Shown: piece after piece, positions 7,140 to 63,553 of the stretch
Position numbering within the stretch: position 1 is the first letter of the stretch
How the letters are laid out: each line of letters starts with the position of its first letter
DNA from: an uncultured Gammaproteobacteria bacterium
GTDB lineage: Bacteria > Patescibacteriota > Microgenomatia > Levybacterales > UBA12049
Assembly: GCA_964416445.1 (NCBI GenBank)
Contig: CAYQEE010000001.1
Coordinates: 131,676-195,675, forward strand
Length of the DNA: 64,000 nucleotides
Reading direction: 5' to 3'
The notes under the pieces: model-generated
Databases searched by the model: none
Seen by the model: the letters and a program-made list of their open reading frames with translations, nothing else
What the model was told of the DNA's origin: nothing
Translations under genes and position numbers: made by a program

Positions 7140-7682
7140 ATGAGAACATTTAAAACTACTGGTATTATTATCAAACGAAAAAATATTGGCGAAGCAGATC
7201 GGTATATTACCGTATTTACAAAAGAGCATGGAAAAATTTCTATTAAAGCGAAAGGTGTTCGAAGAATCACGAGCCGGCGGTCTTCGCATGTAGAATTATT
7301 GAATTACGGCATTCTTAATTTGTATAAAGGACAAGGAACTCCGGTACTCACAGAAATTGAAACATGCAATTCTTTCCATGAGATAAAGGCAGATTTAGAA
7401 AAAACAGGTTTAGCGTACCATCTCTGTGAGCTAATTGATGGATTGTGTCCTGAAAATCAAGAGCTCTCAAATGTTTTCTCACTTTTTCTGGATACTTTAG
7501 AAAAGCTTTCAAGAAATGAGTCGCCAAAGAGTATTGTCCATACATTTGAACGTTCATTACTTAATGTACTTGGCTATTGGTCAAGTCAAAAGGATATTAG
7601 CCAATCGCAAGTAGAACATTTAATTGAAAATATTTTAGAAAGAAAATTAAAGACGTTACAAATACTTCCTCAGTTACAGTAG
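7140..7682 (+). CDS. recO: DNA repair protein RecO (short form)
   Basis: 'GIIIKRKNIGEADRYITVFTKEHGKISIKAKGVRR' matches the RecO N-terminal OB-fold consensus. At 180 aa it is shorter than typical RecO. Confidence 0.65.
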   Translation: MRTFKTTGIIIKRKNIGEADRYITVFTKEHGKISIKAKGVRRITSRRSSHVELLNYGILNLYKGQGTPVLTEIETCNSFHEIKADLEKTGLAYHLCELIDGLCPENQELSNVFSLFLDTLEKLSRNESPKSIVHTFERSLLNVLGYWSSQKDISQSQVEHLIENILERKLKTLQILPQLQ

Positions 7683-11010: not shown

Positions 11011-11283
11011 TTAAAAGAAATCTTGATTGTCATTATCCTTGTGATTGCTTAATGATGGTTGACCATTAGAAGCATCCACTTGTATGAATTCTTCTTTAAT
11101 TTTAACAAATTCATTTTCAACTTCTTGCAAACGGTTTCTACATTGCTTGATTAATTCCTTTCCCTCTCGTAATTTATGTAAACCTTCATCAAGATCAATT
11201 TCTTCATTCTGAAACCAAGTATTAATTTCTTCAAGTCGCTTCACTGATGTGGTGAAATCAATTTTTTTTACCGAATCGCTCAT
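11011..11283 (-). CDS. xseB: Exodeoxyribonuclease VII small subunit
   Basis: 'VKRLEEINTWFQNEEIDLDEGLHKLREGKELIKQCRNRLQEVENE' has the XseB coiled-coil signature. It overlaps xseA by 4 nt. Confidence 0.8.
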   Translation of the reverse strand: MSDSVKKIDFTTSVKRLEEINTWFQNEEIDLDEGLHKLREGKELIKQCRNRLQEVENEFVKIKEEFIQVDASNGQPSLSNHKDNDNQDFF

Positions 11284-12650
11284 ATATTCACCTCCTTTAT
11301 CTGTGACTGTACTTTGCCATCGTAGAAGTGAATGGTAACTACGTCCCCGTTCTTAGTTTGTGATGGAGATTTAATTACTTTTCCTTGTATATCTTTTGTA
11401 ATACTATATCCTTGTTTTAATTTTACTTGTGGGTCACAGAGTGAGAGAACGTGTTCATGGTCTTTGATTTTTTTAGTTAAAAGGTAATACCAATTTTTGG
11501 CATCTTTTTCTATGCTTTTATCGAGATAGGTGAAATTTTGAAGTTGTGTATTCATTCGTTGATGAAATCGTTCGAAATTATAGGTGAAAGTATCTTCAAT
11601 ATGTTTTATTTTCTGTAACATATCTCTGAAACATCGCATTAACGAGTCTTGATAATGCGTTATATCTTTCTGACACTGATAAATATGTTTTGCATAGTTA
11701 CTCATAATGTTATTTTGGAAATAGGTTAGGTTAGTCAGACATGCTTGATATGTATTTTTAAATCGGGTTACTATGTTTTCTTCAATTGTTTCAATTCGTT
11801 GAGCAATCTGAATCCAAGGCTCTGCAAGCATTTTTCCAGCATGTAACGGCACTGAGGCACGAACATCAGCAACTAAATCAGCTATTGTTACGTCTCGTTC
11901 ATGTCCAATAGCAGTAAGAACGGGTGTTTTTGAACTATGAATTGCTTTAGCAATTTCCATACTGTTAAATGCTTGAAGACTTTCCAAACTTCCCCCTCCT
12001 CGGGCTATCACGAGTACATCCAGTGGCTCAGGTAATTCGTTGAACCAACGGATTGCTTGTTGAATACTTTCGATTGCGTTTATTCCTTCAACTCGTACAT
12101 CATAAAAGGAAATATGTAAGCCATGATTTCCTAACCCCATCAAAAAATCAGTAATGACGACTCCTGATCGAGAAGTTATGAGTCCGATTCGTTGGGGAAA
12201 TTGCGGCAGGATTCGTTTTCTCTCTTGACGGAAGTATCCCGCTGCATCAAGTTCTTTCTTTAACTTTTCAAATGCAAGTTTTAAAGCGCCTTCACCAACA
12301 GGCATAATATACTGAACCTGCAAAGAAAGTTTGCCATAAGGTTTATATATTTCTGCATATCCAATAATTTTTACTTCCATTCCTTCTTCGAGGATAAATC
12401 CAATGTTCCGCAATGTGTTTTGCCAAGCAAAACAATTAAGAACAGCTTTTTCTTTTTTATCGCATAAGGTGAAATACACTGCAGCTCCTCGTGTATCAAT
12501 TTTACCGATTTCTCCTTGTACGGTTCCTTTCAGGGGTTTGAGAGCATAATTGAGGTAGCTCAAATACTCGCTCACACTAAAAATTTGATCATCTTTTTCT
12601 GATATCTCTTCGTCAGGTGTATAATGTGATACAGAATAAGGAGCAGTCAT
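11280..12650 (-). CDS. xseA: Exodeoxyribonuclease VII large subunit
   Basis: An OB-fold N-terminus is followed by 'GLITSRSGVVITDF' and 'IARGGGSLESLQAFN', both conserved XseA motifs. Confidence 0.85.
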   Translation of the reverse strand: MTAPYSVSHYTPDEEISEKDDQIFSVSEYLSYLNYALKPLKGTVQGEIGKIDTRGAAVYFTLCDKKEKAVLNCFAWQNTLRNIGFILEEGMEVKIIGYAEIYKPYGKLSLQVQYIMPVGEGALKLAFEKLKKELDAAGYFRQERKRILPQFPQRIGLITSRSGVVITDFLMGLGNHGLHISFYDVRVEGINAIESIQQAIRWFNELPEPLDVLVIARGGGSLESLQAFNSMEIAKAIHSSKTPVLTAIGHERDVTIADLVADVRASVPLHAGKMLAEPWIQIAQRIETIEENIVTRFKNTYQACLTNLTYFQNNIMSNYAKHIYQCQKDITHYQDSLMRCFRDMLQKIKHIEDTFTYNFERFHQRMNTQLQNFTYLDKSIEKDAKNWYYLLTKKIKDHEHVLSLCDPQVKLKQGYSITKDIQGKVIKSPSQTKNGDVVTIHFYDGKVQSQIKEVNI

Positions 12651-12989: not shown

Positions 12990-13466
12990 ATGTTTTATCT
13001 TATAATTATTACTCTTGGAATTTTTTTATTAGGCATATTTCTTCTCGTATTTACCTCAAACCAAAATCGGTCATTTGGTATTCTTACCAGAAAAAAAATC
13101 TACCAAGATACAGAGGAAAAACCGGGAAAAACATTGTATGCTACAACGCTTCCTCTTAGAGGAAAACCTGATTATCTTATTCAACAAGGAAAGGCAATTA
13201 TTCCCGTGGAAGTAAAAACTGGGAAAACGCCGAATTCTCCGTATATGAATCATAGTATGCAACTTATGGCATACTGTCTGTTGGTTGAGGAGACATTTCA
13301 TCAACGTCCTCTTGGTGGCTACTTACGGTATCCTGAAAAAGAATTTAAATTACTTTATACAGAAGAAGCAGAACAATCAGTAAGAAATCTCGTATGGGAA
13401 ATGATTAAAAATAAAAAAACAAATCAAGAATATTTTTGTAGGCATCCAGAACATAACAAATGCTAA
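12990..13466 (+). CDS. Cas4/DUF83-like PD-(D/E)XK nuclease core. One TM helix is followed by 'GKPDYLI', 'IPVEVKTGK', the QxxxY motif 'QLMAYCLL', and C-terminal Cys 'CRHPEHNKC'
   Basis: RecB-family motifs II and III, QxxxY and the C-terminal cysteines are present in Cas4 order. It is in a different frame from the upstream fragment. Confidence 0.55.
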   Translation: MFYLIIITLGIFLLGIFLLVFTSNQNRSFGILTRKKIYQDTEEKPGKTLYATTLPLRGKPDYLIQQGKAIIPVEVKTGKTPNSPYMNHSMQLMAYCLLVEETFHQRPLGGYLRYPEKEFKLLYTEEAEQSVRNLVWEMIKNKKTNQEYFCRHPEHNKC

Positions 13467-37317: not shown

Positions 37318-38549
37318 AACGAGTAAATGCTATTGGGTTATCACCAAATACGAGCATGCGCGATGTTCTTATTGCCTGCAAACAAATGATTAACCCACGA
37401 ACCTATCAAAAAGGCCCTGCGATAACCACTATCGAAAAATGGTTTCTCTCGTATTTTCAGGTAGGATCTGCGGTTTCGTTTTCTCATGGACGAACTGCAC
37501 TCTATGCGATCATGAAAGCGCTTGAAATTGGAAGAGGTGATGAAGTTATTTTACAAGCGTTTACTTGTGTAGTTGTTCCTAATATGATTGTTGCTTTGGA
37601 TGCACAACCAATTTATGCGGATATTACGAAAAACTTGACGATAGATCCTCGTGATGTTGAAAAAAAAATTACCAAAAAAACAAAAGCAATTATTGTACAA
37701 CATACGTTTGGTATTCCTGCAGATATGGAGGCACTTATGGCCATTGCAAAGAAACATAAGATATCGCTTATTGAAGATGTTGCTCATACCATTGGAGGTA
37801 CCTATAAGGGGAAAAAATTGGGAACGTTTGGTATAGCAAGTATTTTTAGTTTTGGAAGAGATAAAGCATTCTCCTCGGTATTTGGAGGAATTGCCATTAC
37901 GAATGATACCGATCTTGGAGAAAAATTGCGAAATTTTCAAAAAAATATTCCTTTTCCATCAAAACAATGGATAGCACAACAACTCTTTCATCCGATTGCT
38001 TTTTCCGTTATTTTGCCTACATATAATTCGGGGTTTGGAAAGCTTATCCTTGTTGTGTTGCAGAAATTACATTTCTTATCCTTTCCAGTAAGTCGTGATG
38101 AGCGAAAGGCACTCTTTTCTCAATCATTGCTGAAGCGATTTCCTAATGCTCTTGCGATACTTGCATTGCAACAACTTGAGCAGCAAGAAAAATTTAATTC
38201 AAAAAGAATAGCAATTAGCCAAAAATATCAAGAAGTATGCCAAGTGAAAGGTATTTCGATTATGAGCAATGAACGATATCCTTACCTTAGATTTCCTCTT
38301 CGAGTAGCAAACCCCCAAGCAATGCGCTCATTTTTTAAAGCGAAAAGGAATATTTATTTAGGCGATTGGTATGCACATGTTCTTGATCCCAGAGGGAGTG
38401 ATTTTACAGCAGTTTCCTATACAAAAGGATCTTGTCCTGTCGCTGAAGCTATTGCCTGTCAAATTATCAACTTGCCAACATACCCATCGATGTCAGACAA
38501 TGATGTGACTGAGGTAATTGATCTCCTCAAACAATATGATACAAATTAA
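37314..38549 (+). CDS. DegT/DnrJ/EryC1/StrS-family PLP-dependent sugar aminotransferase
   Basis: Family motifs 'ILQAFTCVVVPNMI', 'IIVQHTFGIPADM' and 'SFGRDKAF' (PLP lysine region). Confidence 0.75.
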   Translation: MKRVNAIGLSPNTSMRDVLIACKQMINPRTYQKGPAITTIEKWFLSYFQVGSAVSFSHGRTALYAIMKALEIGRGDEVILQAFTCVVVPNMIVALDAQPIYADITKNLTIDPRDVEKKITKKTKAIIVQHTFGIPADMEALMAIAKKHKISLIEDVAHTIGGTYKGKKLGTFGIASIFSFGRDKAFSSVFGGIAITNDTDLGEKLRNFQKNIPFPSKQWIAQQLFHPIAFSVILPTYNSGFGKLILVVLQKLHFLSFPVSRDERKALFSQSLLKRFPNALAILALQQLEQQEKFNSKRIAISQKYQEVCQVKGISIMSNERYPYLRFPLRVANPQAMRSFFKAKRNIYLGDWYAHVLDPRGSDFTAVSYTKGSCPVAEAIACQIINLPTYPSMSDNDVTEVIDLLKQYDTN

Positions 38550-39552
38550 AGAAATCATCAGTAAAACAAGTTGGAATGCTTTTTTAGAACTTATTCCAGC
38601 GGAAAATTATCCTTTTTTCCAAACATGGAATTGGGGAGAGATTCAAAAAAATAACGGATTTCCTATTATCCGGCTAGGTATATATGATGAAAATAAATTA
38701 GTTGGTATTTGTTTAGTTGTTGATATTAATGCAAAACGAGGTCACTATTTCCATTTGCGTCATGGGCCCGTCTTGCTTGATTTTGAAAAATATTTCGATC
38801 CCTTAATCGGGTATATAACAAAACAAGCACAAGCGAAGAACGCTGCATTTTTGCGAATAAGTCCGCTTTTAAAAAAAGATACACTTTTTTTAGATTTTTT
38901 TATAAAACGAAAATTTCGATACGCACCTATTCATAATATGGATGCAGAGATTTGTTCATTGTTGAATATTCAAAAATCTGAACAGGAATTGTTAAGTGGA
39001 ATGAGGAAATCTCATCGGTATTTGATAAAAAAAGCGAAAACGATGACAATTAGCATTCGTAAAAGTACGGACAAAAAAGATATAGAAAATTTTTTGCAGC
39101 TCTATGAAGATTTTTCATCCAAAAAGCATTTTGTTGCGCATAAGGGAATTCTTGAGGAATTTACCGTATTACAGAAAGATGATGAAATTGCTTTATTTCT
39201 TGCTACCTACGAAGAAAAAATTATAGCAGGAATTCTTATCGATTATATTGGTCCTGTTGCCATTTATCATCATGCAGCAAGCAATGCGCAATATCGTAAT
39301 ATTCCTGCAAATTATTTGCTTCTATGGGAAGCTATTATTGAAGCGAAAAAGCGGAACAAATTGTATTTTAACCTCTGGGGAATTGCTCCGACAGAAAGTA
39401 AAAAACATCCTTGGAGTGGGTTTACTCTTTTTAAGACTGGCTTTGGTGGCGAACGAGTAGAATTTTTGCATGCTATGGATTTACCTTTATCGCAATCGTA
39501 CTGGAAAACATATGTTATCGACTGGATAACAAAGAAACGAAAAGGATACTAA
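38518..39552 (+). CDS. FemAB-family aminoacyl-tRNA-dependent peptidoglycan peptidyltransferase
   Basis: The N-terminus '[31 protein letters not shown]' matches the FemABX consensus. Size is 344 aa. Confidence 0.6.
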
Positions 39553-39625
39553 ATATAAACAGATTTTATTGTTCTGCTTTGATCACTTGCAAAACCGTAG
39601 TGCATTTGTTAGGATCAAATTCACT

Positions 39626-40774
39626 ATGCTAATCAAACCTCAAAATTCTAACTTCGCTAAGATCCGAGTCGTTGGGGTTGGCGGTGGAGGCAATAACGCT
39701 TTAAATTCCATGATTTCTCAGAGTCAAATTCAAGGAGTTGATTTCATTTCCGTGAATACAGATGCACAAGCATTACTGCATGCGCAAGCAACATCAACAA
39801 AATTACAAATTGGTGAAAAATTGACAAAAGGTTTGGGAAGTGGTGGAGATCCTGACATAGGAAAACAAGCAGCTGAAGAATCTGCGGAAAAAATAAAAGA
39901 CATGTTAGAAGGATCCGATATGGTTTTCCTTGCAGCTGGTATGGGGGGAGGGACGGGTACTGGTGCTGCACCAATTATTGCCAGAATATCTAAAGAGCTT
40001 GGTGCATTAACCATCGCAGTGGTAACAAAACCATTTACTTTTGAAGGCACCCGTCGAATGGTAAATGCTGAGGATGGCATCGAAAACTTAAAAGATAAGG
40101 TTGATACGCTTATTGTTATTCCAAATCAGCGGATTCTTGATGTCGTTGATAAAAAAGTTTCACTTCTGGAAGCTTTCCGAGTCGCTGATTCAGTACTTTC
40201 TCAAGGAGTTCAAGGAATATCAGATCTTATTACTATGCCTGGACTCATTAACGTCGATTTTGCTGACGTTCGAACGATTATGACAAACGCGGGATCGGCA
40301 TTAATGGGTATCGGTACTGGTTCAGGAGATGGAAGAGCGCAAAATGCTGCTCGAGCTGCTGTTGCATCGCCACTTCTTGAAATTTCTATGGATGGAGCTC
40401 GCGGAGTTCTCTTTAATATTACTGGAGGAGCAGACCTCACGATGAATGAAGTTGATGAAGCAGCAAAAATTATTGCTGATGCAGCAGATCCCGATGCTAA
40501 TATCATTTTTGGCACGGCTATAGACGAATCACTCAAAGATCAAATCAAAATTACTGTTATAGCGACAGGATTTGATTCAACAAAAAGCCGATTAAAAGAA
40601 TTTATGCCCGCCTACGGAGTAAATTACCAAAATCAAGAACAACAATCATCAGTGCAAAAACCAAAACCACAACAAGCACCGCAGCCGCAACAAATGGTAA
40701 ATGAACCAGAATCTACTGAACAAACTGATGAGGAAGTTTGGGATATCCCCGCGTTTCTTAGACAAAAGAATTAA
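39626..40774 (+). CDS. ftsZ: Cell division GTPase FtsZ; start at the internal ATG at 39626
   Basis: '[17 protein letters not shown]' and the tubulin signature '[13 protein letters not shown]'. The C-terminus is Gln/Pro-rich. Confidence 0.9.
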
Positions 40775-44812: not shown

Positions 44813-45003
44813 CAAAGAGAAAAAATTATTTACCCAGTCTTACCCTTTATATTCAATACTTGCTTGATATAGCTTGCTTCGTTATAAAGAATATTATGTA
44901 ATATTTGCGCATATATGAAAAAATATCGTTTTGTCAAAGAAATATTACCACTATATACTTTAATTTCTTTAGTGGCTGTTGTAGAGTAATAGTATACCGT
45001 GAC

Positions 45004-46479
45004 ATGAAACATGCAAATCGTAAGCGCAAGAAAAAAAATCAAGGAATGAAGCTTTCTCTTTTACTCAGTATCATTTTGTTATTTTTTCTCTGTTTAGCGT
45101 TAACTATTGCTTTATTCTTCCTACAACTTCCACAAGATATTCGTCAACATGCTGCTGGGCCAACAACATATGGTACGTGTAGTGGTTCAAGCCCTTCGCA
45201 GAGTGGTAATTGTTACGCTACGCCCAATTCGTGTGCCTCGCAAGGGTTAACTCAATACTATTCATCATTTGTTCCCCAGATCACCCAATGTGGACAACAA
45301 GCATACCTTGCAGGCGTAACTGCTGGTACATCGGTTAGCTGTTGCCCGAATCAACCGAACGGCTATCCCAACTCCTACGGATCTTGTGGAGCAACAAACC
45401 AAGGTACCTGTACGAGCAGTGCTTGTGTTGGAACGCCACTATATACTGATACCGTTCCTACGCAATGTTCCTATAATGGTTCTCAGGCGGCATTAGCAGT
45501 TGGGACACAAATGTACTGTTGTTCATTACCACCAACGCCTACCCCAACTCCAACGATTGATCCGTGCTCAACATTACAGTTAAATCCCAATTGTGCTATA
45601 ACAGCGAACAAGAGCGGTAATTTTTGTGGCGGGAATGCTCCTCCGAGTAATTGTCAGTTAGGAGGTAATGCAAATACGCTGTATTCATGTCAATGTAATG
45701 CCCAAGGTAAGAACTGCGTGATGGTTAGTTCTCAGAATTGTGCACAATCACAAAATGGTGCGTGTATTGTCATTCCTGGTGGGGTAAACGCAGACCACTG
45801 TGGCACAGTTTCACCTCCTCCCGTTGCCGCAGCATTCTCGTTCAACCTTACTGGTATTGGACCAGGAGGAAATAAAAACCCGGGACGCAAAACGCGGACC
45901 TTTTTTCTCTATTTCTCTCCTCATCAATTTGCCAGTGCGTTACTTGCTCAAAATACGAATCAACGAGTGTTAGGTACCCAAGTGATCAAGGTTTCTGGCA
46001 CTGCGACCTATAATGCTTCAGCTGGAGGGTTTCAAGCTTCAAATATTTCCCTTGCTGCAGTTCCCGCGGGGCAATATGATGTAATTCTTCATGTCGATGG
46101 ATCACTCGATAAATTTTTACAACCTATTGGCGGCGCACCATATTTTACTATTACGAATGGTCAGCCAATTACGCCGAGTTCAGTTTCTCTTTCAGGAGGA
46201 GATATTGCCCCTCCTCCTTCAGGTGATAATTTTGTTGATATTCAAGATTATAATGCGCTGATTACCTGTATGAACAATGTCAATTGTGCAAATAAAACAT
46301 TAGCAGATATTAATGATGATGGAATTGTAGATGGAACAGATTTACAGCTTCTCCTGCAGTCTTTTGGTCAGTTGGGTGATAGTTTTAGTAGTCCCTTATT
46401 CGGTTGTGTTCTTGACCCAAATTGTAAAACGGGGGGAGGTACGATACAATTTTGTCAGTTGGTTTGTAAAATACAATGA
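45004..46479 (+). CDS. Cys-rich secreted protein with a Pro-Thr linker and a C-terminal dockerin-like domain; start at the ATG at 45004
   Basis: Signal/TM 'LSLLLSIILLFFLCLALTIALFF', many Cys, and 'PPTPTPTPTPTIDP'. The dockerin-type repeat is 'DINDDGIVDGTDLQLLLQSFGQ', with a weaker preceding repeat 'GDNFVDIQDYNALI'. Confidence 0.55.
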   Translation: MKHANRKRKKKNQGMKLSLLLSIILLFFLCLALTIALFFLQLPQDIRQHAAGPTTYGTCSGSSPSQSGNCYATPNSCASQGLTQYYSSFVPQITQCGQQAYLAGVTAGTSVSCCPNQPNGYPNSYGSCGATNQGTCTSSACVGTPLYTDTVPTQCSYNGSQAALAVGTQMYCCSLPPTPTPTPTIDPCSTLQLNPNCAITANKSGNFCGGNAPPSNCQLGGNANTLYSCQCNAQGKNCVMVSSQNCAQSQNGACIVIPGGVNADHCGTVSPPPVAAAFSFNLTGIGPGGNKNPGRKTRTFFLYFSPHQFASALLAQNTNQRVLGTQVIKVSGTATYNASAGGFQASNISLAAVPAGQYDVILHVDGSLDKFLQPIGGAPYFTITNGQPITPSSVSLSGGDIAPPPSGDNFVDIQDYNALITCMNNVNCANKTLADINDDGIVDGTDLQLLLQSFGQLGDSFSSPLFGCVLDPNCKTGGGTIQFCQLVCKIQ

Positions 46480-47042
46480 ACAATATGGTAATGAAAAAAT
46501 ATACTCCTCTTTTTATGGTAATTACCGTACTTGTGGCAATACTTATTTTTTTTATTATTCAAAAAAGCAGTCATGATATTTTTACAACTGCAATCGCGAC
46601 TCCCACACCGTATGTTGTTTCCGTAACACCTATTTCGCCAAACGCTGTTGCCACACTTTCATTAAAGCAGGAACAACAAAATACCGTAACAGTTCACATC
46701 GATAGTCAGAATAAGCCGGTTACTGCGGTACAACTCGCATTATCATACAATCCACAAGTATTATCTTCGGTTACCATAAACCCTGGTCAATTTTTTACAA
46801 ATCCTGTTGTGTTAAGTAATACTGTTGATCCACATAAGAAAATGATATTTTATGTGCTAGCGATTCGGCCAAATCAGCAGCCACCAACAGGGATAGGTGA
46901 TCTCGCAACGATTACCTATACCGTTAATTTTGGTGTTGCTAGCACTATTTCCTTAGAATTTTTGCCTCAAACGAAGATAACAGAACTTGGTATAGAAGAA
47001 TCAATATTGAAAAGAGCAACAGGAATTGAAATTCCAATATAA
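46476..47042 (+). CDS. Membrane-anchored cohesin-like domain protein
   Basis: An N-terminal TM helix, a Pro/Thr linker, then 'VTAVQLALSYNPQVLSSVTINPGQFF', which resembles the cohesin YDPxxLE core. It overlaps the dockerin gene by 4 nt. Confidence 0.45.
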   Translation: MNNMVMKKYTPLFMVITVLVAILIFFIIQKSSHDIFTTAIATPTPYVVSVTPISPNAVATLSLKQEQQNTVTVHIDSQNKPVTAVQLALSYNPQVLSSVTINPGQFFTNPVVLSNTVDPHKKMIFYVLAIRPNQQPPTGIGDLATITYTVNFGVASTISLEFLPQTKITELGIEESILKRATGIEIPI

Positions 47043-49584: not shown

Positions 49585-49779
49585 ATGACAAAAGTTACGA
49601 ATCAAAAAACGTTGCCGTTTAACTTTAATCCTGATCGGTATGTTGGATTTTGTCGAATATGTGGCAGAGAAGTTACCAAACGGGTTGCAGAGTTTTCGCA
49701 GAAAACATATGGTCTGATTCAGTGTTATTCTTGCCAGCGAAAAGGAGGAAAAAACTATGGTAGATCAAAAAGCCGTTGA
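49585..49779 (+). CDS. Small zinc-ribbon protein
   Basis: CxxC ... CxxC: 'FCRICGREV ... QCYSCQRKG'. Confidence 0.4.
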   Translation: MTKVTNQKTLPFNFNPDRYVGFCRICGREVTKRVAEFSQKTYGLIQCYSCQRKGGKNYGRSKSR

Positions 49780-50194
49780 TACGAAAAAACAAACTAAAAC
49801 GATTGAAGAAAAAATCAAAGAAGTAAATGAAATCTTAACGAAAGGTGAACCAGGAAATATTAGTGTTGATACGTACTCAGGTTATTCTGGATATAAGCCG
49901 CAATTTATTATTGATGCAATGAATGCGATATTTGGTATTGGAGGATGGGGTTTTGAAGAGCTTTCAAGTAGTTTAGAAGGCGGTGTTGAAGGAAAGAATG
50001 CAACAATGGCTGTTGGTCAAGTGAAAGTATGGATTAAAGGAGTAGAATTTGCCCCTGTTGGTTGGGGGCAAAGTAGAATTACGAAAGGTGATATTGGTGA
50101 TGCGAAAAAAGGTGCTCAAACTGATGCAATAAAAAAAGCACTTTCTTATTTTTCAATTGGAAATAGAGCATATCATGGTCTTCTGAAGGGATAA
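49757..50194 (+). CDS. Rad52/Rad22-family single-strand annealing protein
   Basis: 'YKPQFIIDAMNAIFGIGGWGFEEL' matches the Rad52 '[22 protein letters not shown]' motif. 'AKKGAQTDAIKKALSYFSIGNRAYHG' matches '[23 protein letters not shown]'. Confidence 0.65.
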   Translation: MVDQKAVDTKKQTKTIEEKIKEVNEILTKGEPGNISVDTYSGYSGYKPQFIIDAMNAIFGIGGWGFEELSSSLEGGVEGKNATMAVGQVKVWIKGVEFAPVGWGQSRITKGDIGDAKKGAQTDAIKKALSYFSIGNRAYHGLLKG

Positions 50195-50248: not shown

Positions 50249-51479
50249 CATGGGAAAAAAATTCAATCAACAGGCATCTGTATGGGTTACTTTGGCCTTA
50301 TTCGTTATATTTCTTTTAGCGATCTTTTTTCGATTTTTTAATTATACGAATCGATGGGGGTTAGCTTCTGACCAAGCGAGGGATGCTATCATCATTGAAC
50401 GATCAATCCAATAGCATACATTTCCTCTTATTGGTCCATTCTCTGCTTCAGGACCGTTTGTTTTTGGTCCTTCCTGGTATATTTTCTTTATTGTTTTTAC
50501 TTCAGTATTTCCCCAATGGGTCATGACGCCATGGATTGTTCAAAGTATTATATTTACCCTCATGGTATTTGCGATGGTAAAAATTGGAGAAGAAATTGAA
50601 CAGAAAAGCTTAGGATTACTTTTTGGATTATTTACCGCAATCTCTACCGCGCAAATTACATTATCAACAAATCTTATTTTTTCAGCGCTCGTGAGTTGTT
50701 TCTCCGTAGGTTGTTTATATTACTTTTTACGATGTCTTAAAAAAGATTCGGTAATAAACTTTTTTATATTAGCATTATTAATGTCGGTTGCCATTACGGT
50801 ACATTTTCAGGCCATTCCTTTATTGATATTGTTGGTAATTGCTTGGGCAAAAAAGCGAATGAAACCGAAATATCTCTTCTACAGTATTGGTGGGTTTATC
50901 ATACCGTTTATACCACTTATTATTTTTGATACACAAACGGGTTTTTACGAAAGTACGCATCTCGTACAGTTTTTTCTTTTTAATCATGATGCGTATATAA
51001 CGAAACGTTGGTTAATTTACGCTGGGCAATTCTGGCCTGATGTGTGGGGTGATATAATTGGTGGGAATTTGTTTATCGGTGCCCTGCTTATGGTTATTTC
51101 TTTTGGTATCGCTGCCTATCAAATAGGGAAGAAACAATTAAATAGGGAAATGGGTTATTCCCTCATTGCTTTTGCTGGAATATTTATTCTGCTTCGATAT
51201 TTTCGTGGAATTCTTTTTGAAGGTTTTCTTTCGTTTCTGCATCCATTTGTCCTCTTAATCAGTGCGTGGGTATGTTTGCAAATTTATAAAATGCATAGAA
51301 TTATTGGGTTTTGTTTTATTCTTTTGATTGTTGTTCTGACAATGGTAAATAGTTTGAATGCAATACTTCATTCAACAAATAACACCGATAAGGAAACGCA
51401 AATTCTTGAAAATGTTATTGAAACAAAATATCCAAATAAAACATATGCTTTGTATGATTTTCAATATAAAAATACATAG
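50249..51479 (+). pseudogene. GT-C fold membrane glycosyltransferase (ArnT/PMT, GT39/GT83-like) with an apparent 1-nt frameshift in a T6A3 homopolymer at 50333-50341
   Basis: The frame from the 50249 ATG reads 'MGKKFNQQASVWVTLALFVIFLLAIFFRFF' and stops at 50369. The downstream ORF frame is open back to 50319 and reads 'NYTNRWGLASDQARDAIIIEPINPIAY...', an ArnT-like 'W..DExRYA' loop, before continuing into the 318-aa polytopic ORF at 50523. Confidence 0.5.
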
Positions 51480-51509
51480 CAAAGCCTTCCTTTATCACTT
51501 TTTATTCTT

Positions 51510-51725
51510 TTGAAAAAGGAAAATAATACCAAAGGAACACGAATCGGGTTGTCGAATCGGTTATTACAAGATCCTCGGTATCCACTTATGTACCATATTG
51601 AATTACCTTATCCGATCTATGTCTATGACTTAAATCGTGCAACAGTTGGTGATATAAAGAAGGATCAATGGATACTGGTTAATCCAAGAGCAGTCTACAG
51701 CTCTATTGAAGATTGGTATAAATAA
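51510..51725 (+). CDS. Small hypothetical protein
   Basis: 71-aa ORF with no recognisable features. Confidence 0.25.
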   Translation: MKKENNTKGTRIGLSNRLLQDPRYPLMYHIELPYPIYVYDLNRATVGDIKKDQWILVNPRAVYSSIEDWYK

Positions 51726-58648: not shown

Positions 58649-59953
58649 TTATGGAATAAATGATTTAATAAGATCAATTAATTTTTTAAAAAATTTGCCA
58701 CTCGGGAGACTTTTATGTCCAATTTTTGGCAGAGAGAACCCAAATGAAGATTTTTTATCTAACTTAGCACCAAAACGAATTAAACCAATAGCTGTTGCAA
58801 AGGGAGTATCTTGAATTTCATCGACAATACCCTTCATATTGCTAGGAGCACCAACTCGAACAGGCATTGCAAGCATTCGTTTAGCAGAATCAACAATCCC
58901 AACTGTTCGAGCGCCACCTCCCGTAATGACTAACCCTGCAGGAGTTTGGCCACCTAAACCACTTTTTTTGAGTTCATGACCGACCATCGTGAATATTTCG
59001 TTAAGACGTGGTCTGATGATACCCTCGACCAGCGTCTTTTTAGATACTTTATGGAGTTCCTCAGGTAATGACAATGAAGAAAGATCAATTTCATCATGAT
59101 TTCGGTGTTGTTCTTTCTTGTCAGTTTCCAAAACTTGCTCTTCCATATAGGTTGGCCGCTTTGGTGGATTTGAAAGAAATAATTTTATTTTTTCAGCACT
59201 TTCAAGGGAAACCCGCAAACCAATTGCTAAATCATTCGTAACATGTCGTGAACCAATAGGCAAAACTGATGAGTACGCAATAGAGCCTTCAATATATACG
59301 GATATATCTGTTGTTCCTGCTCCGATATCGACTAAGATAATACCTAATTCTTTCTCAGTATCAGAAAGAACCGCAAGTGAGCTTGCGTAACCACTAAAGA
59401 CTACATCATCCACATCCACTCCGACTTCAGTAAGCGCCTTTTCAAGGTTACGAATTGCTGTCGTACTTGCCGTAATAATATGGGTATCAACTTCTAACCG
59501 GACACCCGTCATTCCGGTTGGGTCTTTAATTCCTTCTTGCCCATCGACGGTGTAGTTTCTAGGAAGTACATGCAAAACCTCTCGTGATGACGGAAGTGAT
59601 ACCGCACGAGCAGCGTCGATGACTCGGACGAGGTCATTATGTCCAATTTCACCTTCAGGTGTGGACACGGCAACAACACCTTTTGAATTGATACTTTCAA
59701 TATGATTTCCATCAATTGAGGTAATAACATGCGAAATAGAATGGCCAGCCATACGCTCTGCAGCTTCTAACGAAGAATTGATAGCGACAACAGCATCTTC
59801 AATATCAACTATTTGTCCTTTTCGAATTCCTGCGGATTTTACTTCGGAGACGCCAAGTACGTTGACAATACCCTCTTCATCAACTTTTGCAATTATAGTG
59901 ACAATTTTTGATGTCCCAATGTCAATACCTACGATTATTTTCCCATCAGCCAT
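58649..59953 (-). CDS. ftsA: Cell division protein FtsA
   Basis: Actin-fold N-terminus 'IIVGIDIGTSKIVTIIAKV' and 'DIGAGTTDISVY'. The C-terminus is an amphipathic membrane-targeting helix. Confidence 0.9.
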   Translation of the reverse strand: MADGKIIVGIDIGTSKIVTIIAKVDEEGIVNVLGVSEVKSAGIRKGQIVDIEDAVVAINSSLEAAERMAGHSISHVITSIDGNHIESINSKGVVAVSTPEGEIGHNDLVRVIDAARAVSLPSSREVLHVLPRNYTVDGQEGIKDPTGMTGVRLEVDTHIITASTTAIRNLEKALTEVGVDVDDVVFSGYASSLAVLSDTEKELGIILVDIGAGTTDISVYIEGSIAYSSVLPIGSRHVTNDLAIGLRVSLESAEKIKLFLSNPPKRPTYMEEQVLETDKKEQHRNHDEIDLSSLSLPEELHKVSKKTLVEGIIRPRLNEIFTMVGHELKKSGLGGQTPAGLVITGGGARTVGIVDSAKRMLAMPVRVGAPSNMKGIVDEIQDTPFATAIGLIRFGAKLDKKSSFGFSLPKIGHKSLPSGKFFKKLIDLIKSFIP

Positions 59954-59957
59954 ACTT

Positions 59958-60392
59958 TTAAAACGTTATCACCGGATTATCATAACGAAAATCTATCCGG
60001 TGAAATCGCTTTCCTTCTATTGTAAGCTGCCTCTCAATAAGTTGTAAAGAGGCGATTTGCTGTTCTATATCTTTCTGATTGCTTAAAATAATTTCTTGAT
60101 TGCTTGGTAGGGTTACGAGGGTATTATTATTTTGTGCTGGTTGAACTGAAGTATATTCGATGCTGTTTTTATCGAGTGCCTGGCGAACGAGGGATGAGTA
60201 ATCTTGCGTGTTCGGTAAGATTTTTACCTCGTGTTTCATCAATGGGAGTGGGCTTGCAAGAATTTTTTTTCCAGAAAAGAGGAAGTAACTGACAAATAAT
60301 ATGCTTAAGGTACCAAAAAAGATGCAAGCAGCAAGTAATGATTTATTAATAATGGAACGGAGTTTACGTTTGTGTGGAACTTTTTTGAGCAT
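59958..60392 (-). CDS. FtsQ/DivIB-like short cell-division protein (TM plus POTRA-like region)
   Basis: 144 aa with an N-terminal TM helix. It sits between murG and ftsA with a 4-nt gap. Identified by position and architecture only. Confidence 0.45.
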   Translation of the reverse strand: MLKKVPHKRKLRSIINKSLLAACIFFGTLSILFVSYFLFSGKKILASPLPLMKHEVKILPNTQDYSSLVRQALDKNSIEYTSVQPAQNNNTLVTLPSNQEIILSNQKDIEQQIASLQLIERQLTIEGKRFHRIDFRYDNPVITF

Positions 60393-61482
60393 AGGTCAAG
60401 ATTGTTAGTATATTCTTTGCTGCATCTTTATGAAGCAGAATGTCGGAGTCTGGTTTTTGGTTCGTGCTATTTCCTTTCTGATTAATCATATCATGAATAT
60501 GCTGGAGGAATTGTTCAGGAGTTGCGTTCTGTTGTAAAAGAATCTGGCCTTTTCCATGCGCTTTAAAAAATAGTGCATTTTTTCGTTGTTCATCATGTTG
60601 GGTGTGGGGAAGCGGAATAAGAAGTGCTTGTTTTTGCATGACTAACAACGTGGTAATTGTGTTCATTCCTGCACGCGAAATAATAAGATCAGCCTGAGCA
60701 AATATCGAGACAATATCTTTGGGATCAACAAATTTTACCAATGTATACCTATTTTTAGCCAGTGGACTGAGGGCATCTTTTTTTTCGGTAAGATTGTCGA
60801 AATCATGAAATTCTTTCGCATCACCAGTCTGGTGAAAAACGGTATAGTATTTAACTAATTCTCCGAGCGTTGCTGATACGAGCATATTGATGGCATGAGA
60901 ACCTTGGCTACCGCCAACAATGACGAGTCGATGTCGATTGCTTATCTCTTCTGTGCTTGGTATCTTGTGTGAAAAAATTTCTGATACAGCAGGATTACCA
61001 GTGAGCGCGATTTTGTTCCGATTAAAAAAATTGCTAGAACTCTGCCATGAGATACAAATCTTTGTTGCAAAAGGTGCAATCACTCTGTTTGCAAGTCCTG
61101 CTTCAAGGGTTTGTTCATGAATAACAATAGGAATTCGCAAAAGAAAACCAACCAAGCAAATAGGGACTTGCACATATCCGCCAAATCCGAGAATAATTGT
61201 TGGACGAAATGTTTTAATAATACGAAATGCCTGCCAAAATCCAATGGGAATTTTCAATATTGATGCGAATGAATGGTTTGTCCACTTTCGTTGAAATCTT
61301 CCTGTCGTGATCTCAGCAAATGGTATCTTTCGTTTTGTGAGAATTTGATATTCAAGCGAAAGCGTTTTTTCACCTTCTAAAGCAGTTTTTCTTCCCACGT
61401 AGAGCAGATGTGCTTCAGGAGGAAGTGCTTCAATAACTGCCAAAGCTGGGGTAAAATGGCCACCAATAATGAGAACTCTCAT
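60364..61482 (-). CDS. murG: UDP-N-acetylglucosamine--N-acetylmuramyl-(pentapeptide) pyrophosphoryl-undecaprenol N-acetylglucosamine transferase
   Basis: Start moved to the internal ATG at 61482, giving 'MRVLIIGGHFTPALAV', the MurG G-loop. This start overlaps the ftsW stop by 4 nt. C-terminal GT-B domain is present. Confidence 0.85.
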   Translation of the reverse strand: MRVLIIGGHFTPALAVIEALPPEAHLLYVGRKTALEGEKTLSLEYQILTKRKIPFAEITTGRFQRKWTNHSFASILKIPIGFWQAFRIIKTFRPTIILGFGGYVQVPICLVGFLLRIPIVIHEQTLEAGLANRVIAPFATKICISWQSSSNFFNRNKIALTGNPAVSEIFSHKIPSTEEISNRHRLVIVGGSQGSHAINMLVSATLGELVKYYTVFHQTGDAKEFHDFDNLTEKKDALSPLAKNRYTLVKFVDPKDIVSIFAQADLIISRAGMNTITTLLVMQKQALLIPLPHTQHDEQRKNALFFKAHGKGQILLQQNATPEQFLQHIHDMINQKGNSTNQKPDSDILLHKDAAKNILTILTYAQKSSTQT

Positions 61483-62549
61483 ATGCTTTGTTTTCGAATA
61501 TTCAATAAAATACCAATCGAACATAAATCAATGATTAATGATGAACCCCCATACGAAATGAAAGGCAGTGGAACCCCGGTGAGAGGAAACAATGTTGTCT
61601 GAGCTCCTAAATTAATAATCATTTGCATTGTTAAAAATGCGGTGATGCCACCTGCTAATAGTTTACCAAACGTATCTCTTGCTCGCATAGCTATAAAGAG
61701 TCCTCTCCAAGCAAGGACTGCTAATACGACAAGCAAAATGGTTGAACCTATAAAACCAAATTCTTCTGCGATGATAGCAAAAATAGAATCAGTAGTGTTC
61801 TCGGGTAAATACGCATATTTTTGCAGTGAATTACCAATGCCTACTCCTGTAAGTCCTCCCGAACCAAGGGCAATTAATATTTGTGTGACATGATAATGCG
61901 CGGGGTTTGAGGGATCGGTAGGATTAAGGAATGTTGCTAATCGTTTCGCGCGATATGGTTCAATCTTAATGAGAATAAACCCAAGAATGCCCAGAATTGG
62001 TCCCATAATACCTAAATAGAGAAAATTTCCCCCCGACAGAAAATATAAAATGAGTGCTTCAGAAAGAATAATAATTGCTGTTCCCATATCAGGTTCTAAA
62101 AGAACTAAAACGAGAACAAGTCCGACTAATAAGAGAAAGGAAAAAAATCTTCCTTTTTCTTTATTGGAAAACCATGCAGCAAGGTATATGGCTAACGTTA
62201 ATTTAACGAACTCTGCAGGTTGCAGTACCGTAAAGTGGAAATTAAGCCATCGGTGAGCGCCTAAAATTGGTTGACTCAATCCAGGAATAAACACCATCAG
62301 TAGGAGAAGAATAGCAAGAATAAGTAAAGGAAGTGATAGTTTATAAAATTTGTGATAATCAAAATAAGTCAGAAAAGACATTCCAATAAATCCAAAAATC
62401 ATCCATATCGATTGATCCTTAATGTAATGAAATTTATCTCCATGGAAATCACGGTATGAAATAAATGATGAAGCGTCGTAAATCATGAGAAAGCCAAATA
62501 ACGTTAGTGCAATAACACCAATGAGCAGTACGAGGTCTATTTTTTTCAT
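61479..62549 (-). CDS. ftsW: SEDS-family lipid II flippase/peptidoglycan polymerase FtsW
   Basis: Start at the internal ATG at 62549, giving 'MKKIDLVLLIGVIALTLFG', which overlaps the mraY stop by 4 nt. 'ENTTDSIFAIIAEEFGFIGS' is the SEDS signature. Confidence 0.85.
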   Translation of the reverse strand: MKKIDLVLLIGVIALTLFGFLMIYDASSFISYRDFHGDKFHYIKDQSIWMIFGFIGMSFLTYFDYHKFYKLSLPLLILAILLLLMVFIPGLSQPILGAHRWLNFHFTVLQPAEFVKLTLAIYLAAWFSNKEKGRFFSFLLLVGLVLVLVLLEPDMGTAIIILSEALILYFLSGGNFLYLGIMGPILGILGFILIKIEPYRAKRLATFLNPTDPSNPAHYHVTQILIALGSGGLTGVGIGNSLQKYAYLPENTTDSIFAIIAEEFGFIGSTILLVVLAVLAWRGLFIAMRARDTFGKLLAGGITAFLTMQMIINLGAQTTLFPLTGVPLPFISYGGSSLIIDLCSIGILLNIRKQSI

Positions 62550-63553
62550 CTGATGAGCGCGAGATATAGTCCGACGATAGCAAAGAAGAAACCGAGTAAC
62601 CAAGCCCGCATAACAATTTTAGGTTCTTCCCATCCTTTATGTTGCAAATAGAGATGAAAAGGCGATACAGGAAATAATTTTTTATGAAAAAACTTTTTCC
62701 AAATCATTTGTAATAATGATGATCCTGCTTCAATAATAAAAACGCCTCCGATGACGGCAAGCGCGATTGTTTTTCCGGATAACAAACCAATCACTGCTAA
62801 CACAGCACCTAATGATAATGAACCGACATCTCCGAGCCAGATTCTCGCTTTATAGATATTAAAATAAAGAAAGGCTCCCACAGACCCCATAAGTAGAGCA
62901 ATAAAAATACCGAGCGATGGGTCCAATTGTTGTGCTGAAATAGCTAAAAAGGCGACAAGACAAATAAGAAATAATCCTGATGCGAGCCCATCTAATCCAT
63001 CAGCGATATTAGAAGCGTTTGCAAACCAAACAATTACAGCAGCTGCAAACGGAATATATAAATAACCGACACTTGCCAGACCAAAACCACGTATGTAGAT
63101 AAAATTACCATTTAATTTTGTATAAAAAATAACGGCAATAATTAATGCAAGGATCAATTGAATAATGAGTTTATGACGAAGTCTAAGGCCAAAAAATGCT
63201 GATCGAATATTAGTCATTTTTTTTAGATCATCATACAGACCAAGCATACCAAAACCTATAAACGAAATGAGAAGTACTGTTAATGCCCAAGGGTTAATTT
63301 TTACATTTAAAAGACCATAGGCCCAAAACGTAAGAATTGAGACTGCAACAATAATGAGCAGTCCTCCCCCAATAGGAGTGCCAACTTTCCAAGAATGAAA
63401 TTTATCAAAGATTGTTGCACGTTTATTGAAAGGATCTTTCGTTGCTTGCGTACGTCGTTGCAGCTTAATTTTATATAAGAAATCAATAAAAGGCACAAGT
63501 AAAATTGCCGTGATAAACGACGATAATATGGATAAACCGAGGAGTTGCACCAT
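62546..63553 (-). CDS. mraY: Phospho-N-acetylmuramoyl-pentapeptide transferase
   Basis: 'NASNIADGLDGLASG' is the MraY signature. About 10 TM helices. Confidence 0.9.
   Translation of the reverse strand: MVQLLGLSILSSFITAILLVPFIDFLYKIKLQRRTQATKDPFNKRATIFDKFHSWKVGTPIGGGLLIIVAVSILTFWAYGLLNVKINPWALTVLLISFIGFGMLGLYDDLKKMTNIRSAFFGLRLRHKLIIQLILALIIAVIFYTKLNGNFIYIRGFGLASVGYLYIPFAAAVIVWFANASNIADGLDGLASGLFLICLVAFLAISAQQLDPSLGIFIALLMGSVGAFLYFNIYKARIWLGDVGSLSLGAVLAVIGLLSGKTIALAVIGGVFIIEAGSSLLQMIWKKFFHKKLFPVSPFHLYLQHKGWEEPKIVMRAWLLGFFFAIVGLYLALIR

Follow-up and report, generated by a model that had tools for sequence, protein, structure and literature searches.

Rad52-type annealases are working parts of recombineering and serve as models for human RAD52. 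RecO anneals SSB-coated ssDNA and in some species pairs its DNA-binding fold with a zinc module of the Cys4 type. In Mgm101, ring-and-groove annealing takes place in cis, on the same ring, and the same has been proposed for RAD52 (PMC13110880). Phage annealases contact their partner exonuclease and the host SSB through C-terminal domains (reviewed in PMC11611040). DdrA of Deinococcus radiodurans, the one chromosomal bacterial Rad52 homologue that has been studied, protects 3' ends and showed no annealing in vitro (PMC515370).

Here we describe a Rad52-family gene and its zinc-ribbon partner in a 64-kb stretch of DNA (the window) whose FtsZ has its best named relatives in Candidatus Levybacteria/Levyibacteriota, in Microgenomates, and in the Patescibacteria group. 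The Rad52 family is known; what we did not find described is a core-only member that is fixed in a Patescibacteria chromosome and has a zinc-ribbon partner of its own. The gene most likely encodes a working strand-annealing protein that the host has kept, rather than prophage debris.

Layout of the ZnR and Rad52 genes

An earlier note on this DNA had placed two short ORFs at the locus, and both are present. The first, taken from the ORF list (49585..49779, +), is gene 1 of a two-gene module and encodes a 64-aa zinc ribbon (ZnR; CRIC…CYSC). Its metal-binding motif, CxxC-x20-CxxC, is CRICGREVTKRVAEFSQKTYGLIQCYSC (49651..49734, +), and the same spacing recurs in the related loci L012, L015, L010, and L022. 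The second ORF (49757..50194, +) encodes a 145-aa protein that is predicted from PF04098, AF2, and Foldseek to be a core-only Rad52-family single-strand annealing protein. The two conserved Rad52 blocks that the note had quoted, FIIDAMNAIFGIGGWGFEEL and AKKGAQTDAIKKALSYFSIGNRAYHG, are both found in the translation of this ORF.

The ZnR and Rad52 ORFs overlap by 23 nt. A Shine-Dalgarno sequence, AAGGAGG (49742..49748, +), lies within the 3' end of ZnR and 8 nt 5' of the Rad52 ATG. An equivalent AGGAGG precedes Rad52 in L012, where it overlaps the ZnR stop codon. No obvious ribosome-binding site of its own was seen for the ZnR ORF. The arrangement of the ORFs and the Shine-Dalgarno sequence suggests that translation of Rad52 may be coupled to that of ZnR. 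A ZnR-Rad52 fusion made by programmed frameshifting was also considered and was rejected, with the Rad52 frame at +1 relative to ZnR in the window and at +2 in L012. As one part of the explanation that we favour, the locus is probably a two-gene operon in which a small zinc-ribbon protein is followed by a minimal Rad52-type annealase.

Family membership and predicted fold of the Rad52 protein

The 145-aa protein is a member of the Rad52 family, well above chance. The earlier note had named the Pfam family PF04098 (Rad52_Rad22) as the profile against which to check this assignment, and the protein scores 38.6 bits, above the gathering cutoff of 20.3 bits (E 1.3e-9, residues 50–139). The same family is carried by all 120 of the homologues among the matches listed. 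Searching PDB sequences with the single query gave a weak match (E 0.12); a family profile of 108 members reached human RAD52 with an E value of 7e-8 and yeast Rad52 with 4e-6. The comparison of the profile to the PDB also returned a lysozyme CW_7-type repeat (5i8l, 4cvd), which covered ~20 residues and was discarded as spurious.

An alignment of 26 sequences was shallow and gave a mediocre AF2 model (pLDDT 64.7), which was superseded by a model from a 108-sequence alignment with a pLDDT of 94.4 and a pTM of 0.86. Its elements follow the order helix, two short strands, helix, three long strands, and long helix, and the model has the beta-beta-alpha-beta-beta-beta-alpha fold of the Rad52 N-terminal domain. 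The best 30 Foldseek matches in the PDB are exclusively RAD52 or Mgm101 (E to 6.5e-7, TMq 0.60–0.68). Structural matches of this type in BFVD, which holds viral structures, are phage Rad52/Erf/RecT annealases. PF04098, the family profile, and Foldseek bear out the family that had been proposed for this protein.

K126 and K127 (codons at 50132..50137, +) align with K152/R153 of human RAD52 because query residue 133 sits at chain residue 159 in the HMMER alignment to 1h2i. In RAD52 structures these human residues contact ssDNA in the inner groove. Both lysines are invariant in family alignment A1, and the position of human R156 is a Ser in the 145-aa protein. The eukaryotic RAD52 subfamily model TIGR00607 was not reached (20.4 bits vs a cutoff of 224.8).

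The protein stops 5–6 residues past the annealing core and has no C-terminal partner-binding tail. Clustering at 50% identity yielded 617 detectable representatives, 80 of them at E ≤ 1e-30. Most of these are 200–270 aa long and extend past the core into a C-terminal tail; by this comparison the window protein is a core-only form. At 145 aa it is close to the smallest complete Rad52 core, and it is unusually well conserved. Clustering at 90% identity gave >400 relatives, most of them ~146 aa in length and 65–79% identical. For a mobile-element annealase, 65–79% identity over >400 clusters is unusually high conservation, and this family spans both Patescibacteria copies (GC about 36%) and Chloroflexota (GC 42–54%).

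The zinc-ribbon partner

No curated Pfam family matched ZnR, and a word-based search of a 5.8-billion-protein set returned no match except ZnR itself. Relatives were located by scanning neighbouring DNA and through fusion proteins. In L012 the corresponding position holds an uncalled ORF that is homologous to ZnR (37% identity over 43 aa, E 7e-12) and keeps four of the four cysteines. The C-terminal 34 residues of a Rad52-ZnR fusion, P0321, give a gap-free alignment with the window ZnR (E 4e-5) in which the CxxC-x20-CxxC spacing is identical, and the L012 ZnR also aligns to the C-terminal tail of this fusion (E 0.002). Among 275 family proteins, five have a CxxC…CxxC ribbon fused to the Rad52 core, at the C terminus in P0287, P0321, and P0328 and at the N terminus in P0347 and P0375.

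A CxxC-x20-CxxC ribbon is beside or fused to the Rad52 gene in one third of the non-redundant loci (5/15, window included). It is located immediately upstream in L015, upstream in L012, and downstream in L010, and it is fused in L022. On the same strand of the same loci, the exact spacing occurs five times in the 27.5 kb near Rad52 and is absent from the other 194 kb. A looser CxxC pattern was observed eight times near Rad52, compared to 1.84 expected (P = 6.6e-4). The earlier note had proposed a zinc-ribbon partner; the L012 homologue, the P0321 fusion, and this linkage count bear out a partner that is real and conserved.

In the DNA around the Rad52 gene, a zinc ribbon was not seen in L009, L021, L008, L017, or L005. 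Two of these, L009 and L021, are chromosomal copies without a ribbon in the available DNA, so the ribbon is not obligatory. The zinc ribbon is thus a recurrent, non-obligatory partner of this Rad52 subfamily. ZnR evolves fast (dN 0.69), and the papers on SSAP diversity that we consulted make no mention of such a zinc-ribbon partner.

Small Cys-rich ORFs with other CxxC spacings adjoin Rad52 in L006 (8480..8662), L014 (2536..2811), and L004 (5180..5302), and these could be more remote forms of the zinc-ribbon partner. The L022 contig is phage- or plasmid-like and carries DUF3846, Omega repressor, HTH_36, and PDDEXK_15 genes. It also encodes a 2825-aa protein with no Pfam match (L022 1..2075), on the same strand as the Rad52-zinc-ribbon fusion gene and ~4 kb upstream of it.

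Gene content of the window

Most ORFs of ≥110 aa across the 64 kb were scanned with Pfam, and the families found are housekeeping, cell-envelope, or transport families, or none. The window encodes glycosyltransferases, RecO, a class II aminoacyl-tRNA synthetase, XseA, a Cas4-like nuclease, MraZ/MraW, a PBP, Mur ligases, MurA, GlmS, FemAB, FtsZ, a two-component system, a dockerin/cohesin pair, a CBS protein, an APC permease, IleRS, RodA, L21, L27, ParB, LepB, FtsA, MurG, FtsW, and MraY. Genes flanking Rad52 include those for the Mur ligases, FtsZ, IleRS, RodA, L21, L27, ParB, and FtsA.

Among the scanned ORFs of the 64-kb window there is no integrase, transposase, relaxase, or phage structural gene. 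A search for flanking att-like repeats gave just short, imperfect AT-rich matches, and no tRNA is adjacent, the nearest (and only) one being ~8 kb away. The GC content of the Rad52 gene is 0.358 compared to 0.367 for the locus, with no GC anomaly. PADLOC defence models had no match at E ≤ 0.1 to Rad52, ZnR, or their neighbours. No ssb, exonuclease, or replication gene is adjacent to the window Rad52, whose neighbours are the APC permease and a membrane protein. Phage recombination modules (Sak-type SSAP) have a phage location and an annealase with a C-terminal tail, and neither feature was found here. The permease upstream, which the earlier note had recognized, matches PF13520 (E 1.4e-50). 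That note had also described the flanks as not phage-like and had suggested looking for prophage genes and att sites in related genomes; the scanned ORFs across the 64 kb hold no integrase, transposase, or phage family, and the check within the window found neither phage genes nor att-like repeats.

The membrane-protein gene downstream of Rad52 (50250..51725, +) is a single 491-codon frame with TAG codons at 50412-50414 and 51477-51479. It had been called a frameshifted GT-C glycosyltransferase. The frameshift does not hold, as the interruptions are two in-frame TAG codons in one frame, and the GT-C assignment is sub-threshold (PMT_2, 19.8 bits vs a cutoff of 26.1). The second TAG (51477-51479) is polymorphic, being TCG (Ser) in L003 (SRR12266072) and TAG in the window, L001, and L002.

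Host genes for recombination and repair elsewhere in the window include RecO, identified with Pfam (7140..7682, +), the exonuclease VII large subunit XseA (11280..12650, −), and a small Cas4-like PD-(D/E)XK nuclease (12990..13466, +). Since RecO is encoded in the window, a host mediator pathway also exists, and the Rad52 protein would therefore add to the host recombination-mediator machinery and not replace it.

Several other features of gene order were observed. The dcw block MraY-FtsW-MurG-(143 aa)-FtsA (58649..63553, −) is inverted and lies ~18 kb downstream of ftsZ in the window. FemAB directly abuts FtsZ both in the window (38518..40774) and in L020, and L019 retains the dcw block between FemAB and FtsZ (L019 4921..9953). 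At 44905..47042 (+), a dockerin-containing, Cys/Pro-rich secreted protein of 524 aa adjoins a cohesin-domain protein of 188 aa, possibly a minimal cohesin-dockerin pair in a Patescibacteria genome.

Related loci in mobile elements and chromosomes

Relatives of the Rad52 protein at 60–76% identity are carried by a phage, by other predicted viral contigs, and by conjugative-like elements, and their neighbours include terminase, integrase-like, Replic_Relax, TrwB-like, ArdC_N, and resolvase genes. A large terminase (phrog_38, E 7.5e-74) is encoded by the phage, L014. Two of the predicted viral contigs, L015 and L017, are low in GC (29% and 34%), and the Rad52 relatives on predicted viral contigs have 60–65% identity. 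In L006, L007, and L008, Rad52 is beside Replic_Relax proteins of 1300–1400 aa and strings of tiny ORFs. L013 carries resolvase and Tn3 genes and a TrwB-like protein. A scan of genome contigs identified two loci, both in Chloroflexota: L004 in a Ktedonobacteraceae genome and L005 in a Chloroflexia genome. These contexts support a mobile-element origin for the Rad52 pair.

Plasmid records contained one match, from Thermovibrio, with 39.6% identity. There was no match to this Rad52 subfamily at E ≤ 1e-3 in 50,697 sequenced phage genomes, and PHROG matches to the 145-aa protein were weak. The earlier note had expected such proteins to be nearly always phage-encoded, which holds in part: phage L014 and the viral contigs agree with it, but none of the 50,697 sequenced phage genomes has a match, and conjugative-like elements are carriers too.

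A stand-alone ArdC N-terminal protein of ~100 aa lies at most ~1 kb from Rad52 in L004 (5342..5653), L006 (9090..9398), and L013 (8537..8839). These three are conjugative-like elements that also carry 1300–1400-aa Replic_Relax proteins. The ArdC N-terminal domain binds ssDNA and is anti-restriction.

The loci of Patescibacteria relatives were obtained through FtsZ-anchored look-ups, and the chromosomal copies (window, L012, L009, and L021) are in Levybacteria-like genomes. Gene order in L012 is that of the window: urocanase, CBS (−), APC permease, ZnR, Rad52, a 404-aa protein, and IleRS. The 404-aa protein has no BLAST similarity to the interrupted gene of the window, and synteny at that place is thus positional only. 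The contig of L009 encodes an FtsZ that is 81% identical to that of the window, and its Rad52 gene follows hut genes, pumps, and MarR. In L021 the Rad52 gene comes after MarR and GreA. No Rad52 gene is present in the ftsZ-to-ileS interval of L019, which is fully covered, and the gene is therefore accessory, not core.

Selection and descent

Between the window and L012, identity is 74% for Rad52, 88% for IleRS, and 81% for the permease, with housekeeping genes at 77–88%. Values of dN are 0.189 for Rad52, 0.202 for CBS, 0.145 for the permease, and 0.098 for the N terminus of IleRS; dS is saturated throughout, which allows no more than an upper bound of ~0.1 on dN/dS. All 54 of the columns that are invariant in 25 other family members are kept in the window Rad52. 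The chromosomal copies group in a neighbour-joining tree, which joins the window with L012 and P0003, then L009 with P0006, and in which L021 also clusters; bootstrap values for this grouping are moderate (50–68/100). The window Rad52 is about equally similar to a mobile-element copy, L010 (76%), and to L012 (74%).

These observations fit, with moderate support, a single ancient acquisition and subsequent vertical descent under purifying selection. As in a DdrA-type gene, the window Rad52 is chromosomal, outside a prophage, and vertically inherited, judging from the synteny with L012 and a dN equal to that of its neighbours. The conserved L012 locus, the neighbour-like dN, and the 54 invariant residues make neutral prophage debris unlikely. 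The earlier note had left the choice between a domesticated recombinase and the remnant of a decayed prophage. The same evidence favours the first, a gene retained under selection, and disfavours a decaying remnant.

Proposed role and alternative explanations

Taken as a whole, the explanation that we consider the better supported, with moderate confidence, is a domesticated operon of ZnR and a minimal Rad52 annealase that the host has retained. A phage or plasmid-like element would have delivered the pair as one module, and the pair would have become fixed in a Levybacteria-like (Patescibacteria) chromosome, in a variable interval between ftsZ and ileS. It would since then have been inherited vertically under purifying selection. 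By homology, the 145-aa protein is expected to assemble into a ring and to hold ssDNA in a basic groove of which K126/K127 are part. A complementary strand would then be annealed on the same ring without ATP, as in RAD52 and Mgm101. The zinc ribbon may take over in trans the part that C-terminal tails play in cis in related annealases, and it probably contacts a partner protein (SSB or a nuclease) or provides an extra DNA contact. In the cell the pair would act in RecA-independent single-strand annealing repair or recombination, alongside the host RecO. The candidate roles are repair by single-strand annealing, recombination of DNA that enters the cell, and DdrA-like protection of ends.

A broader reading is more tentative, and we regard it as possible but doubtful. 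It holds that the core-only Rad52 ring and a dedicated CxxC-x20-CxxC subunit, separate or fused, form an undescribed two-component annealase that is carried on Chloroflexota/Patescibacteria phages and conjugative elements and was domesticated in a Levybacteria lineage. If true, this would be a host factor for RecA-independent recombination or repair, or a factor for incoming DNA, and possibly a compact recombineering tool.

Of the alternatives to annealing by a host-retained protein, a DdrA-like function survives best, and we consider it unlikely. Here the protein would bind and protect ssDNA 3' ends, or cap DNA ends in some other way, and would not anneal. It shares with DdrA the status of a chromosomal Rad52 homologue outside a prophage, and DdrA protects 3' ends with no annealing in vitro (PMC515370). 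The window protein is also missing the C-terminal tail through which other annealases work with an exonuclease or SSB (PMC11611040). However, the groove residues and the complete core fold of RAD52/Mgm101 annealing are conserved, and nearly identical proteins are found in phage and plasmid-like elements, where annealing is expected.

Less probable again is a system that is still selfish or engaged in conflict, either a minimal mobile or satellite ZnR-Rad52 module or a phage defence/counter-defence system, and that has no part in host DNA repair. No PADLOC model matched, the ORFs scanned in the window include no integrase, transposase, or relaxase, no repeat boundary was found there, and the stable synteny and the vertical look of the divergence also argue against such a system. 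These weigh against a module that recurs in many unrelated mobile elements (65–79% identity, 400+ clusters), that often adjoins ArdC_N anti-restriction-like genes, and that has a patchy chromosomal distribution.

A neutral leftover, meaning the last fragment of a decayed prophage or plasmid that is functionless and not yet deleted, is very unlikely, for although mobile elements carry the relatives, the gene sits in a variable, accessory interval from which it is absent in L019, and nonsense codons in the neighbouring membrane-protein gene point to some local decay, the ORF is uninterrupted and its ribosome-binding site, AAGGAGG, is strong, the locus persists in L012 at 77–88% identity of housekeeping genes, Rad52 dN is that of its neighbours at saturated dS with 54/54 invariant residues kept, GC is fully ameliorated, and useless DNA would hardly last this long in Patescibacteria, which are described as having small, reduced genomes.

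A ZnR-Rad52 operon kept by its host would have several implications. The recurrent zinc-ribbon partner may replace the usual partner-binding tail and would then offer a simple system in which to study tail function. A host-maintained annealase near RecO would indicate a RecA-independent route for repair or for incoming DNA in candidate-phyla-radiation bacteria, and such a route matters in very small genomes with limited repair capacity. The locus would also illustrate cleanly how a gene pair from a mobile element becomes fixed and vertically inherited.

Comparison with known systems

The N-terminal domain of RAD52/Mgm101 (PDB 1H2I, 8RJW, and 9YI6) provides the best structural matches, with the same order of fold elements. 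Homology to it is detected at the level of sequence profiles, and K126/K127 align to K152/R153. Compared to eukaryotic RAD52, the window protein has 145 aa, is without the C-terminal mediator region, and fails the TIGR00607 model.

Phage Rad52-like annealases, such as Sak of lactococcal phage ul36 and those of rad52-ssb modules, belong to the same Pfam family, PF04098. Relatives at 60–65% identity are found in predicted viral contigs, including L014 with its terminase, and BFVD holds Rad52/Erf matches. Unlike phage Sak-type proteins, the window Rad52 is tail-less, lies among housekeeping genes, and has no adjacent ssb, exonuclease, or replication gene. Its partner also differs, being a zinc ribbon that the SSAP surveys we consulted do not report.

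RecO is a functional analogue with an unrelated fold and is separately encoded in the window. DdrA, compared here by description, is like the window Rad52 a bacterial Rad52-family protein that is outside a prophage and maintained by its host. It differs in being longer and damage-induced, and in protecting 3' ends with no annealing detected.
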